Assembly: GCA_044229975.1 (NCBI GenBank)
Contig: JBGARZ010000002.1
Location: forward strand, 992,001 to 1,056,000
Direction of reading: 5' to 3'
DNA: 64,000 nucleotides
Source: Polyangiales bacterium
GTDB taxonomy: Bacteria > Myxococcota_A > Polyangia > Polyangiales > Ga0077539
In this document: positions 37,478 through 42,359 of the stretch, piece after piece
Numbering within the stretch: position 1 is the first letter of the stretch
How the letters are laid out: the number at the start of each line of letters is the position of its first letter
Program-made: the position numbers and the translations under genes
Notes under the pieces: model-generated
Databases searched by the model: none
Told to the model about the DNA's origin: nothing
What the model saw: the letters and a program-made list of their open reading frames with translations, nothing else

Positions 37478-38239
37478 ATGAACTTCCTGTTCTGGAATCT
37501 GGGGAAGAGACCGATCGAGGAGCTGCTCGCTACGGCGGTTCACGAGCACGACGTCGATGTGATCGTGCTCGCGGAGTGTGAGACTCCGGTCGGGAGATTG
37601 TTGCAGTCGCTCAATCAGGATCGATCACGCCGATACGTACGAGCGGACCTCCTGCCGGGTCGAGTGCAGGTGTTCTCGCGCCTTCAGGCGGGCAGCATCC
37701 AACCTGTACGCAACACGCCCAACGCCGTGATCCATCGTGTCTCACCAAGCTCTGGTGAGGCGTTCTTGTTGGTCGGAGTACACTTCCCCAGCCGTCGACA
37801 CCACCATCCCGACGACCTGAGCGATCTAGCTGGGCGCCTGGCTCGGACCATTCGGAACGCCGAAAAGCGCGAGGGTCACGCTCGGACGCTGGTAGTCGGC
37901 GACTTCAATCTCGACCCGTTCGATCGCGGTCTTGCGGGGAGCGAGGGTCTGCACGCGGTCATGGATCGGCGCATCGCCCAGCGTGGCTCTCGGACGATGC
38001 AGTGGCTCCAGCGTCCGTTCTTCTACAACCCGATGTGGAGCCGACTTGGCGACGCGAGCGTCGGCCCTCCGGGAACCCACTACTACGCTCGCAGCTCCGC
38101 GCTCGCCCTCTTCTGGCACACCTTCGATCAGGTGCTGATGCGCCCTCAAATGATCGATCAGTTCGACCCGATGTCGCTTGCGGTGTTGACGTCCGTTGGG
38201 GATACCTCCCTGGTCGACGAAGTCGGCGTACCAGACGCG
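37478..38239 (+). pseudogene. Endonuclease/exonuclease/phosphatase (EEP) family gene, 5' part, interrupted by a mobile element
   Basis: 'FLFWNL', 'VIVLAE', 'VHFPS', 'VGDFNLDPF', 'FDQVL'. The catalytic SDH is missing here. Read-through into the element stops at 38278. Confidence 0.88.
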
Positions 38240-38329
38240 TTGGTAGGTGCTCTTGCCGCACAACTTCCATCGGTTTGAGGACCTGAAACTCCGGACTTCG
38301 GAGACCTCCTCAAATCGCTGGAGGAGACG

Positions 38330-39748
38330 ATGGACGAGAAGCGAGATGAGCAACGGCTGCCACGCAGCGTAGGGCGGCGATACACAGCCGAGGAGCGCGC
38401 GGTGGTGCTCGCCGATGTGCCGGCGTTGGGCTGCAAGCCCGCGGCGGCGAAGCATGGCGTTCCGGCCCCCAACGTCTTCCGCTGGGCGAAGGCTGCCGGG
38501 GTCACGAAGGCGTCGAGCAGCGACGAGACGCCCACGGCGCCCGCGGCGCCCGCCGCGCCGCCGCCGCCAGTGGTGATCGCGAAGGCGAAGGCGGCACCCG
38601 CGCGGCGCAAGTCCACCGCGTCGGCGAAGGCGGCGCCGCCGTCGTCGGCGGGCAACAAGTCGCCTGACACCACGGGCCTCCCCGCCAAAGCCGTCGCAAC
38701 GCCCGCGGCGAAGCCGAAGACCGTCGCGCGTTCGTACACGCCGTCGGAGCGCGCGGAGATCCTCGAGTACGCCGCCGAGAAGAGCGTCACCGAGTCGGCG
38801 ACGAAGTTCAAAGTGAGCCGGTTCTCGATCTACGAGTGGCAGCGCAAGGTCAGCGCCGCGGCGAAGGGCGAGGGCCCGTCGCCGACGAGCGGTGCGGGCG
38901 TCAAGGAGATCGAGGCGCGGCGCGACAAGGAGATCCTCGACGAGTGGAGCCGGCACCCCGGCCTCGGGCCGAGCCAGATCCGCAACCAGCTCCGTCGCAA
39001 GAGCGTGAAGGTCTCCGTCCACACGGCGCGGCGGGTGATGGAGGAGGCGGGCTATCGGCCGCCGAAGGTCGCGCGGCATCCGCACATCCAACGCTTCGAG
39101 GCCGTGCGCCCGAACCACCTCTGGCACCTCGATTTCGTGCATCGCAACATCCACCGCGCGAACACGTTCACGTTGATCCTGATCGACGACCACTCGCGCT
39201 TCGTCGTGGGCCACGGGGTGGACGACGCGGAGCGCGCGGACATGGTGATCGGGACCTTCGAGCGCGCCGTCGCGCGGTACGGCAAGCCCGAGATGGTGAT
39301 GCACGACCGCGGCGCGGCGTTCTGGGCGTGGAACGGCATCTCGCGCTTCACGGCGCTGCTCACGGAGCTCGGCATCGACCAGCTCGTCGCCGTGGACAAG
39401 GAGCACAACGGCAAGGTCGAGGTCTTCAACGCCAACCTCGCGAAGGAGCTGTTCGACGTGCAGCGCTTCGCCGATGTGGGCGAGATGCGGCGGCGGCTCG
39501 ACACGCACATGCACTGGTACAATCACGGCCGCACGCACCACGCGCTGGGCGGCCTGCTGGTGCCCGCGGACCGCTACTACGGCCGCGTGGACGAGGTGCT
39601 CGCGCGCATCGAAGCCGGCGCGGGGCGCGACGTCGGCGACGGCATCGACCTGCGCGCCCGATCGCTGGATCTCTTCAAGGTCACCAGCCGCGACGGCGTG
39701 CCCGAGGTGTGGCTCATGGGCCGAAAGCTGATCGAGCTGCGCCCCTGA
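38330..39748 (+). CDS. DDE transposase/integrase (rve, IS481/IS3-like) with duplicated N-terminal HTH
   Basis: GGAGGAG RBS; 'RPNHLWHLDF', 'IDDHSRF', 'MHDRG', 'NGKVE', 'WYNHGRTHHAL..PADRY'. Confidence 0.92.
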   Translation: MDEKRDEQRLPRSVGRRYTAEERAVVLADVPALGCKPAAAKHGVPAPNVFRWAKAAGVTKASSSDETPTAPAAPAAPPPPVVIAKAKAAPARRKSTASAKAAPPSSAGNKSPDTTGLPAKAVATPAAKPKTVARSYTPSERAEILEYAAEKSVTESATKFKVSRFSIYEWQRKVSAAAKGEGPSPTSGAGVKEIEARRDKEILDEWSRHPGLGPSQIRNQLRRKSVKVSVHTARRVMEEAGYRPPKVARHPHIQRFEAVRPNHLWHLDFVHRNIHRANTFTLILIDDHSRFVVGHGVDDAERADMVIGTFERAVARYGKPEMVMHDRGAAFWAWNGISRFTALLTELGIDQLVAVDKEHNGKVEVFNANLAKELFDVQRFADVGEMRRRLDTHMHWYNHGRTHHALGGLLVPADRYYGRVDEVLARIEAGAGRDVGDGIDLRARSLDLFKVTSRDGVPEVWLMGRKLIELRP

Positions 39749-39826
39749 AAGGAAAGCGGTCTCCCGCCCTGGTCGTGTATTGCGAAGTTTCCAGACACCG
39801 CAACGCACCACCCAGACAAGGAGACC

Positions 39827-41722
39827 GTGCGCTCCGACCTACCAGAGTCCGGCGAGTCCGTCTCGCCGCTCCTGATCTCCGCCCTGCTTCTTGCGTCCGC
39901 CGAGCACGCTCGGCGGGTCTCGCTCGCGCACCCGTCCGTCGGTGAGATCCTCGCGGCCACCGGCGCCACGCGCTCGCGGGCGTATGAGTTGCGCGACGCG
40001 CTCGTGGCCTCGCTGCCGTCGTTGCAACGCCCTGCGGGGCGCCCAGCGGTCGCGGAGACGGCACCATGCGGCGGCCCGTGCGAGGAGCTGCTCTCCATCT
40101 CGCGGGCGATGCTGCGCTTCACCTTCGAGCATCCTGGGTGCGTCGGGGGTGACCGGCGGCGGCACTACACCGATGCCTTCCGGCACCGCGTGCTGGAGCT
40201 GCACGCCGCGCATGAGGATCTTCCTCTCGCACGCTTCGCGGAGGCCGTGGAGGTGCCGCTGGAGACCGTCGAAGACTGGCTGCGTGCCGGAGCGATCACC
40301 GCGCCACCCGACGAGCCGGTGCGCGACGTGGAGAACGACACGAGCGCCACGCGGCTCACGCATCTCGAGACCGTGCTCGCGGAGTGGAAGACCTGGCGCG
40401 GCGGCTTCTCGGACTTCTGCGCGTACTTGAAAGCCGACTGCCGCGTCCCGTACGGCCCCACGCTGGTGAGCTCCATCCTCGCCGCGCGCGGGATTCGCAC
40501 GCCGGCTCGGCGCGAGGGACGATCGCCCGACGAGCGTGCGCTGCGCGGTGCCTTCGAGGTCTTCTTCCCGGACGCGCAGTGGGTCGGCGACGGCTCGCAG
40601 GTTGCGCTCGAACTCTCCGGCGCGCGCCACGTCTTCAACCTCGAGTTGCTGGTCGATCCGTACAGCGGCGCCTTCGTCGGCGCGTCGCTCGGCGACCAGG
40701 AGGACAGCGAAGCCGTCGCCCTCGCGATGGCGGACGCGAGGGCGACGACGAGCGCCGCGCCGCCGCTGCCGCTCGCGGTGCTCCTGGACAACAAGCCGAG
40801 CAACCACGCGCCTGAGGTGGATCGTGCGCTCGATGGTGCCGAGCGCATTCGCGCGACCCCCGAGAGGCCGCAGAACAAGGCGCACATCGAAGGTGGATTC
40901 GGGCTCTTCCAGCAGACCGCGCCGCCGCTGCTCGTCGAGGGAGAGGACGCGCGCTCGCTCGCACGATCGATCCTCCGGCTGGTCCTCACGACCTTTTTCC
41001 GCACGATCAATCATCGTCCGCGCAAGGATCGCGACGGTCGCTCGCGCGTCACGATCCACGGGGAGACGCCGACGCCGGAGCAGATCGCCGAGGCGCGCAA
41101 GGCGCTCGCGGAGCGGTGCCGCCGCCAGGAGCTCGCGCGACAGACGCTCGAGGCGCGGCAGGATCCCGAGGTGCGCGCGTACCTCGATCGGTCCTTCGAG
41201 CGGCTCGCGCTGCTCGACCCGGAGCGCAGCCTCCGCATCGCCCTCGCGCGCTATCCGCTCGACGCGATCGTCGATGGCGTCGCGATCTTCGAGGGCAAGC
41301 GCGCCACCGGAACGATCGCTGCCGACACCGACGCGCGCTACCTGCTCGGCATCGTCAGGAACCTCGCCGCCCAGAACGAGGGACAACGAATCTGCGAGGC
41401 GCTGCTCCGCGAGCGGATGGCCCAGCGCGACCGCATGCTCGCGTCGCTGCAGACCGAGCGTGTGCGCATCGAGCAGATCCTCCCGGTCGTCGGGGACCGC
41501 CTGAAGGCCTTCGCCGACCGCGCCTGCGAGATCGACGCGGTGCTCGACCGGCGCTTCTGGCTGCTCGTCCTCATCGACACCGTGCGCGCCCAGCCGCGGG
41601 CGCAACACGCCAGCCTGACCGAGAACCTCTCGCGGAGGATTCACGCCACGTTTCGCATCACGCCCCGCGAGCGGGCGGACGCCGTGCGATTCATCGTCGA
41701 TCGGGTCGTGGCGCTGCACTGA
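39827..41722 (+). CDS. Second, divergent DDE integrase-fold transposase
   Basis: AAGGAG RBS before GTG; 'PDAQWVGDG', 'LVDPYSG', 'LLDNKPSN', 'PQNKAHIEGGF', 'INHRPR'; internal HTH-like 'HYTDAFR..FAEAVEVPLETVEDW'. Confidence 0.8.
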   Translation: MRSDLPESGESVSPLLISALLLASAEHARRVSLAHPSVGEILAATGATRSRAYELRDALVASLPSLQRPAGRPAVAETAPCGGPCEELLSISRAMLRFTFEHPGCVGGDRRRHYTDAFRHRVLELHAAHEDLPLARFAEAVEVPLETVEDWLRAGAITAPPDEPVRDVENDTSATRLTHLETVLAEWKTWRGGFSDFCAYLKADCRVPYGPTLVSSILAARGIRTPARREGRSPDERALRGAFEVFFPDAQWVGDGSQVALELSGARHVFNLELLVDPYSGAFVGASLGDQEDSEAVALAMADARATTSAAPPLPLAVLLDNKPSNHAPEVDRALDGAERIRATPERPQNKAHIEGGFGLFQQTAPPLLVEGEDARSLARSILRLVLTTFFRTINHRPRKDRDGRSRVTIHGETPTPEQIAEARKALAERCRRQELARQTLEARQDPEVRAYLDRSFERLALLDPERSLRIALARYPLDAIVDGVAIFEGKRATGTIAADTDARYLLGIVRNLAAQNEGQRICEALLRERMAQRDRMLASLQTERVRIEQILPVVGDRLKAFADRACEIDAVLDRRFWLLVLIDTVRAQPRAQHASLTENLSRRIHATFRITPRERADAVRFIVDRVVALH

Positions 41723-41892
41723 CGGCGAGGCGCCCGCACACCGTGGGCGACCCCGACGGCGACGGGCTCGACGGCGATCGCTGCGACGCCAAAACCAACG
41801 AGCGCCCGAGCGTCAGCCGGTCACGCCAAGGCGCTCGCCAGGCCGCGCCAACGGACGTCCGCCATTTCTTGTTGGTAGGTGTTTGACAAGCG

Positions 41893-41973
41893 CAGGTAGG
41901 CTCCGATCATCTGCCCCTGCGATTCAGCCTGAGCTTTCCAACAACCGGCCATCAGGAGATACTTCGACCATGA
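41893..41973 (+). pseudogene. EEP gene, 3' remnant carrying the catalytic SDH motif
   Basis: Translates QVGSDHLPLRFSLSFPTTGHQEILRP*. The stop overlaps the next ATG (ATGA at 41970-41973). Confidence 0.85.
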
Positions 41974-42359
41974 GCGCCCGAAACCTGTGGGGTGACATTC
42001 CTTCGGCCACGTCGTTGCGCACGCCGACCACGGTATTGCGCGAGCAGGCCGACCTTCTGACCACCCTGACCAAGGGCGTTCTGAAGGGCGTCGTCGAAAC
42101 GTTGCCGTTCCGCGGTTCACTTACCAGCACCCTCCTGATCGAGGCTCCAGCCCTCGACAACTACCATCATCAGGTGCTGCGAGCGGAGTATGGAACGTCT
42201 CTGTACCCCGTCGCGGTAGACAGGGGAGACTCGGACGCGGTGCACTACTGCGACGACGAAGACGCCTTCATCGCGTACCTCGGCGAAGTCCTCTCGTCGC
42301 CAGACGTCCACAAGACGATCCAAGTGCTTCTCGCGCAGAGCACCGCCACTGCCGCCTGA
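41970..42359 (+). CDS. Small hypothetical protein translationally coupled to the EEP nuclease
   Basis: AGGAGA RBS; 129 aa 'MSARNLWGDIP..TPTTVLREQADLL..APALDNY..YPV'; less GC-biased than the backbone genes. Confidence 0.8.
   Translation: MSARNLWGDIPSATSLRTPTTVLREQADLLTTLTKGVLKGVVETLPFRGSLTSTLLIEAPALDNYHHQVLRAEYGTSLYPVAVDRGDSDAVHYCDDEDAFIAYLGEVLSSPDVHKTIQVLLAQSTATAA

Follow-up and report, generated by a model that had tools for sequence, protein, structure and literature searches.

The window analysed here, a stretch of 64,000 nucleotides from a Polyangiales bacterium (GenBank assembly GCA_044229975.1, contig JBGARZ010000002.1, positions 992,001 to 1,056,000), carries an insertion sequence in which two genes, open reading frames (ORFs) 1 and 2, each encode a transposase with its own Asp-Asp-Glu (DDE) catalytic triad. 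Relatives of this element keep the two genes together, and their ends differ by about one turn of the DNA helix. On this sequence evidence we tentatively propose a widespread and active family that would depend on an obligate heteromer of two DDE paralogues, one for each end, with an end discrimination akin to the 12/23 rule and an antisense RNA that rations the second enzyme; that both genes are required seems probable. To our knowledge, DDE transposases normally consist of one protein used several times, and the proteins that assist them are either ATPases, nucleases of unrelated origin or helpers without a catalytic role. No insertion sequence with two DDE transposases was found in the literature, in a search that did not extend to ISfinder, TnCentral, most subscription journals or supplements, so an earlier cataloguing is possible.

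An insertion sequence with 6-bp target duplications

Alignment of five left and five right junctions from this genome defines the element as TGCTCTTG...CAAGCGCA at 38248-41894: the left junctions all agree up to TGCTCTTG... (38248) and the right ones up to ...GACAAGCGCA (41894), with divergence outside. The insertion sequence is thus delimited to 3,647 bp with TG...CA tips. The genome contains three full copies and four halves at contig ends, and contigs from independent metagenome runs break at the same two positions (X1, X2, X4; X14, X15, X8). All 3,647 bp are identical across the three full copies, and the element is therefore recently active.

38248..41894, + strand: whole insertion sequence, defined by identical full copies, junction alignment and contig breaks
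38242..38247, + strand: left target duplication GGTAGG, the bulk of the left copy of an 11-mer discussed below; none of the other copies shares it, and it recurs at 41895-41900
41895..41900, + strand: right target duplication GGTAGG, from the junction alignment

The target duplication is 6 bp long, centred on TA, and exact in all four copies of this genome whose flanks can be paired; besides GGTAGG in the window these read AGTAGG (contig C11), GCTACA (C31) and CGTAGC (both ends of C29), while the left junction on C1 and the right junction on C24 are unpaired. Inverted terminal repeats, a duplication of fixed length and a transposase of RNase H fold with a DDE triad, the defining properties of a DDE insertion sequence, are all present. 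Relatives were collected in a genome set of 83 loci, which includes duplicates and two of the element's own copies, and a metagenome set made up of the best 80 of 374 loci examined. Flanks have a central TA in 98 of 101 cases in the former and 106 of 112 in the latter, and among the genome-set flanks no duplication longer than 2 bp had a length other than 6 bp. The commonest target is GGTAGG/CCTACC, found at 18 of 101 flanks; its share of the TA sites in this genome is 2.8%. This 6-mer, found roughly sixfold above its share of TA sites, is also the core of the right repeat (41874-41881), and one DNA preference possibly serves both end and target. Two candidate insertions into the element's own repeat (L033, L060) were rejected, the flanks being no more than short likenesses.

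Two transposase genes kept together

38330..39748, + strand: ORF1, 472 residues, IS481/IS3-like DDE transposase with D268, D326 and E364; Pfam rve and HTH_Tnp_1
39827..41722, + strand: ORF2, 631 residues, second DDE transposase with core residues D255, D321 and E355, recognised by triad conservation and fold match

ORF1 scores below the cut-offs of both families that it resembles (156 bits against 224 for NF033577; 128 against 160 for NF033516). ORF2 itself matches neither Pfam nor NF033577, and 31 of 40 relatives match the integrase-core Pfam weakly. Its layout comprises helix-turn-helix-like domains, an integrase core and then a helical C-terminal part of about 215 residues. A model of the core (predicted local distance difference test, pLDDT, 87) matched retroviral integrases, TnsB and IstA in a fold search, with a best E value of 8e-8. 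The whole-protein model (predicted template modelling score, pTM, 0.44) gave weak fold matches only; a wide fold search was filled with generic matches to the helical C terminus (best Z 8.6) and was uninformative, the ESM Atlas returned one unnamed cluster at 0.75, and sequence searches of the Protein Data Bank produced five weak matches for ORF2 and none for ORF1. By hhalign (E 1e-4, probability 52%) the profiles of ORF1 and ORF2 are collinear, with an alignment that starts at the helix-turn-helix domains and continues into the core; this suggests that ORF2 descends from an old duplication of an ORF1-like gene.

Both active sites are conserved. Across 108 elements with two DDE genes, the three triad positions are occupied in 108, 108 and 108 ORF2 proteins and in 108, 107 and 108 ORF1 proteins. 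The ORF2 triad is present in 96/96 full-length relatives, down to 25% identity, and in an alignment of 67 relatives with a mean column identity of 39% it contributes to just 8 invariant columns. In nine chosen close pairs the ratio of non-synonymous to synonymous substitution rates was 0.09-0.41 for ORF1 and 0.20-0.47 for ORF2, with purifying selection on both in 9/9.

The genes are also coupled. In 59 of the 61 metagenome loci with room for it, the gene immediately upstream of ORF2 is a relative of ORF1; of the other two loci, one has a longer gap and one (L155) lacks ORF1. The corresponding count in the genome set is 75 of 83; among the eight misses, ORF1 lies further upstream in three, one is split by an insert of about 9 kb, and the last four are fragments, frameshifted loci or loci with too little flank. 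In the converse search from ORF1, 17 of the 19 foreign loci with enough room also carried ORF2; the two without it matched ORF1 only in part. Trees of the two proteins show correlation (Mantel rho 0.63; permutations reached 0.35 at most). End profiles detected no element end between the two genes in this genome, and no full-length ORF1-ORF2 fusion occurred among three longer matches, a weak test.

The ORF2 family is large: 1,253 of the 7,997 candidates that were scored belong to it, a clustered search gave 380 clusters with E<=1e-30, and it occurs in 27 of 401 genomes of the phylum, this one included. By record titles it spans many phyla, the records being metagenome bins in which short contigs may be misplaced, and the elements range from 3.4 to 4.4 kb. 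ORF2 was absent from the plasmid collection and the viral contigs searched. Its proteins are mostly unnamed or 'hypothetical', and the pairing may have been overlooked because ORF2 escapes Pfam and naming. In one genome (G638 contigs C18 and C23; L286, L287, L288, L292, L293, L294), inserts of about 5-9 kb lengthen three copies, and another two right ends lack an adjoining full element.

The two ends are unequal

38248..38271, + strand: left terminal inverted repeat TGCTCTTG..., at the end with the lower conservation; 17/24 matches to the right end
41871..41894, - strand: right terminal inverted repeat, holding the right copy of the 11-mer (41871-41881) and an outward TTGACA
41883-41888, + strand: outward -35 hexamer TTGACA, found in 133/138 distinct right ends
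38285..38296, + strand: left inner box GAAACTCCGGAC, at position 38 counted from the tip; 43/43 left ends have their best match at 37-39
41857..41868, - strand: right inner box GAAATGGCGGAC, at position 27 counted from the tip; 65/65 right ends (training set) have their best match at 26-28

The terminal repeats are imperfect yet genuine, with a median of 15/24 matches over 36 related elements against 8 for shuffles. Inside them lies a 12-bp inner box, whose profile was trained on right ends only; in 36/36 elements its best match is 10-12 bp deeper inside the left end than inside the right. The offset recurs in the metagenome set, where ends were located from their first 24 bp alone: the best match falls at position 37-39 in 41/41 left ends and 27-28 in 60/63 right ends, and the box is 10-12 bp further in at the left in 36/38 elements.

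Further differences concern conservation and promoter-like signals. The right end carries 36 bits of information against 27 for the left, and its tips read TGCG in 138/138, whereas left tips begin TGC in 80% and TGT in 19%. TTGACA is not among the eight commonest hexamers at the left end, which lacks the fixed AA that forms it. Conversely, a -10-like xAnnnT lies at position 11 or 12 in 78/94 left ends against 3/138 right ends. Just upstream of the ORF1 ribosome-binding site, the left inner box is overlapped by a short inverted repeat (38289-38305), which is found in several relatives as well.

In one clade, a change in the recognition helix of ORF1 accompanies a change in the repeat core, position 15 becoming C at both ends. 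This clade is a single branch in the ORF1 tree, while a quick ORF2 tree would require two changes. The covariation comes down to this single event, since removing the clade lowers the partial correlation from 0.47 to 0.09. Left-end sequence tracks ORF2 weakly (0.14-0.24). As far as such sequence comparisons go, covariation assigns no end to either enzyme.

A possible control region before ORF2

39758..39826, no strand assigned: conserved hairpin of about 65-70 nt that ends at the ORF2 start codon and covers the ribosome-binding site; z -3.4 here
39836..39864, - strand: predicted antisense promoter in ORF2 codons 4-13, with a -35-like GAGACG, a 17-bp spacer and a TA-led -10 box without the -7 T

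ORF1 is one frame, and ORF2 starts 78 bp past its stop. The hairpin that fills most of this gap was assessed in 55 relatives picked solely by the start of their ORF2 match, with z scores from mononucleotide shuffles. It is more stable on the antisense strand, which was stronger in 43/55, and z fell below -2 in 44/55 antisense and 37/55 sense folds, compared with 2 and 4 of 53 coding control windows. There was no match in Rfam. RNAalifold found no consensus in 40 hand-picked hairpins, whose alignment was poor; an anchored count placed 27 of the 40 and revealed base pairs of altered type in the basal stem, with an anchor that itself selects for pairing.

An antisense RNA before ORF2 is predicted from these signals, and would resemble the antisense RNAs RNA-OUT of IS10 and art200 of IS200. 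A TA at codon 5 occurs in 43/55 relatives, set against about 3% NTA among Val, Leu and Ile codons, and 19 of these 43 have GAGACA, a promoter-like signal that could in part be protein constraint. We consider it an even call whether ORF2 is kept scarce by the hairpin and the predicted antisense RNA. A common environmental variant, 96-99% identical elsewhere, fails to align across 39724-39943 (the hairpin and ORF2 start) in three runs, and the control region may be exchanged between elements.

End-to-end joins

The outward -35 at the right end and the -10-like box at the left would form a promoter if the ends were joined with a spacer of 0-2 bp, the first signal being clear and the second weak. 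One metagenome contig (L150:930-1050) carries such a join, in which a right end meets the left end of a related element through a 1-bp spacer without TA, giving an 18-bp promoter spacing. Elsewhere an element's own ends are joined head-to-tail by a 6-bp TA-centred spacer (L049:1-70; L078:2450-2520). L078 is a tandem dimer with an identical 6-mer at all three joints, which reads as target re-use.

The initial annotation had envisaged a circle with a 3-bp GCG spacer that would place two binding sites 21 bp apart. That geometry fell with the boundaries on which it was built, the flanks being 6-bp duplications. No free circle junction is listed in eight runs, all of them assembled contigs that drop rare forms. 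The circle-junction pattern was likewise absent from 33 genomes, and the sole viral-contig match to the junction was rejected, with a 9-bp gap and no transposase match. A circular intermediate as such is still plausible given the promoter signals and the joined ends; movement through a copied-out circle whose junction forms a promoter has, in our estimate, about equal chances of being right or wrong.

Proposed mechanism and alternatives

We tentatively propose the following scheme. ORF1 and ORF2 would work in one mixed complex with one enzyme at each end, and the extra helical turn at the left would distinguish that end from the other. The element would be copied out into a circle, the joined ends would create a promoter, and the hairpin and antisense RNA would limit the level of ORF2. 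A mixed transpososome, in which each end is cut and joined by its own enzyme, falls a little short of an even chance by our reckoning from the sequences, and we place it ahead of a division of labour by step, a non-catalytic partner and a cargo gene. Prediction of a complex between ORF1 (residues 130-472) and ORF2 gave a score of 0.01 and is evidence neither way.

Several observations speak against this scheme. The clade-specific covariation suggests that ORF1 contacts both repeats, as a single-enzyme model predicts, and the link between left end and ORF2 may be no more than the greater phylogenetic signal of ORF2. Target flanks appear symmetric. ORF2 has Gln eight residues past its catalytic Glu where ORF1 has Lys, and it evolves faster than ORF1. 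The two trees conflict in places, with 7/12 and 8/21 strong splits common to both; either parts are exchanged between elements or the trees are unresolved. As for the circle, the xAnnnT of the window copy sits only at position 14, where a -10 box is poorly placed, and the 6-bp spacers in two or three joins (L049, L078, perhaps L070) are too long for a promoter. Lastly, exact 6-bp duplications are few, at 8 of 33 distinct genome loci and 3 of 39 metagenome contigs, with 4/6 and 2/2 in two long-contig genomes; we take the shortfall to reflect assemblers that join flanks from different copies, a presumed cause.

The strongest competitor, on the unlikely side in our judgement, divides the work by step: one enzyme would perform the one-ended copy-out transfer, or would make the second-strand cut that TnsA provides for TnsB, and integration would fall to the other enzyme. 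The retention of both triads, the apparent reading of the repeat core by ORF1 at both ends, the junction-promoter signature with its end-to-end joins and the symmetric flanks all fit this division, and a step with its own timing would go well with separate control of ORF2. On its own the division leaves the conserved 11-bp offset without an explanation, and known copy-out transposases perform both steps alone (PMC7780238).

Somewhat less favoured, and unlikely, is that ORF1 is the working transposase and ORF2 a required or helpful non-catalytic partner (a scaffold, end-pairing subunit or regulator) whose acidic residues serve folding or DNA binding. Identical piggyBat subunits can split catalytic and non-catalytic roles (10.64898/2026.07.15.738711). 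ORF1 is the more conserved protein and nearer to IS481, and ORF2 has no basic residue after its Glu, a large extra domain and seemingly damped expression. Against this stands the place of D255, D321 and E355 among only 8 invariant columns in 67 relatives; non-catalytic partners usually lose the triad.

A reading of ORF2 as cargo, or as what is left of another element that had inserted into an IS481-like one, is improbable. Some ORF2 loci lack ORF1 in the available DNA (L017, L025, L076, L098; L155) and the tree conflicts would show exchange between elements; however, no internal ends were detected here, the gene order is the same in many phyla, selection is purifying, and the lone ORF2 loci other than L155 are fragments, frameshifted or short of flank.

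An 11-bp direct repeat at one landing site

The initial annotation had drawn the element at 38237..41892, with an 11-bp direct repeat in place of inverted repeats. The letters are as described, GTTGGTAGGTG occurring in direct orientation at 38239-38249 and 41871-41881. The host frame is restored with either set of boundaries, and the total length does not differ between them, so flank alignment alone decides; the other copies place the ends at 38248 and 41894. The left 11-mer then resolves into three host bases, the GGTAGG duplication and the terminal TG, and the right copy into positions 14-24 within the right inverted repeat. None of the four remaining left junctions has the 11-mer, as they match the inner copy over just 2, 7, 2 and 2 bases; the longest match among 34 relatives is 9 bases, and GGTAGGTG occurs in 0/43 left ends. 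It had been foreseen that other copies might lack the pair and that the 11-mer might really be the target duplication, and this is what we find. A left copy that varies by site does not support a transposase binding site, and inversion is not confined to TTG/CAA: the window copy has imperfect inverted repeats with 7/8, 8/10 and 17/24 matches.

The direct repeat is thus a coincidence of one landing site with no role in the mechanism. We put the chance of such a coincidence at roughly 0.1% per insertion, a rough estimate for something spotted post hoc; it arises easily, GGTAGG/CCTACC being at once the commonest target and the core of the right repeat. This identity, together with the host frame that both sets of boundaries restore, is what misled the initial reading. 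A model with direct-repeat ends, a 3-bp spacer and the 11-mer as paired binding site, which would account for the two occurrences and the conserved right copy (conserved through its location in the inverted repeat), can be dismissed almost entirely, the 11-mer being missing from all four other left junctions and 34 relatives and genuine inverted repeats with 6-bp duplications being present.

The ends are asymmetric all the same, through the 11±1-bp offset of the inner box and the -35 hexamer confined to the right end and not through the 11-mer. The two enzymes are conserved together, and the asymmetry may be the reason why both are needed.

Host gene and neighbourhood

37478..41973, + strand: host gene of the endonuclease/exonuclease/phosphatase family (PF03372, E 9e-9), split by the insertion and lying outside the element; from the empty-site frame

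The empty site reads through in frame to give a 280-residue protein with a C-terminal SDH motif, which the insertion severs from this phosphoesterase-family gene. Within the same neighbourhood (window 37478-42359), the stop of the host gene overlaps the start of a 129-residue ORF without a Pfam, NCBIfam or PADLOC match, and the PADLOC search returned nothing relevant. Another copy lies within a CRISPR array (G000 contig C11, about 433800-441100, covered in part by L001) of 59 repeats with a 61-bp period and one 3,714-bp interval. Its duplication straddles a spacer/repeat boundary, and the array was probably hit as a chance TA site.

Relation to known transposition systems

IS481 elements are about 1 kb long and target NCTAGN, centred on TA like the target here. 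NF033577 is the best NCBIfam match of ORF1, below cut-off; the tips are TG...CA, and 6 bp is the majority duplication length in the IS481 family (PMC10045372). The present element differs in having two DDE genes in 3.4-4.4 kb instead of one, TGC tips instead of TGT, and an offset inner box. IS3 elements join OrfA and OrfB by a -1 frameshift, whereas this one lacks frameshifted OrfA/OrfB, duplicates 6 bp instead of 3-5 and encodes two separate full DDE proteins. It shares TG...CA ends and a helix-turn-helix with integrase core with IS3 and other copy-out elements (IS911, IS2, IS30, ISCth4). Copy-out elements have a -35 in the right end and a -10-like box in the left (PMC7780238), of which the first is clear here and the second weak, and they form end-to-end dimers (PMC9333248), of which L078 offers an example here.

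IS1202 has a related DDE core and, in one subgroup, a 5-6-bp duplication, and Gln replaces Lys/Arg after its catalytic Glu, as in ORF2; it differs in having one transposase, a length of 1.3-2.0 kb, TGT tips and, in one subgroup, Xer-site targeting, and its passenger genes are unrelated to the transposase (10.1101/2022.12.17.520857). In Tn7 (TnsA and TnsB) and IS21 (IstA and IstB), two element-encoded proteins cooperate, and the ORF2 core has a fold similar to that of TnsB and IstA. TnsA, however, belongs to the restriction-type nucleases, and IstB and TnsC are ATPases; here both proteins are DDE paralogues, and a Pfam/NCBIfam scan found no ATPase match in the element beside the two DDE genes. 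By analogy only, the ends recall the 12/23 rule of RAG in differing by one helical turn from tip to inner box. A piggyBat transpososome offers a second analogy, with unequal ends and an engineered heterodimer (10.64898/2026.07.15.738711). RAG and piggyBat each use one catalytic protein type, and we claim no homology. The element works like an IS481/IS3 type yet fails the criteria of both families on gene number, tips or duplication length.

What is unusual is that two catalytically intact paralogues are kept together across many phyla, on elements whose two ends are offset by one helical turn. A natural heteromer would be a starting point for two-sided targeting, which has lately been engineered by hand in piggyBat (10.64898/2026.07.15.738711). 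If the proposal is true, this family would show how a symmetric transpososome can split into end- or step-specific subunits.

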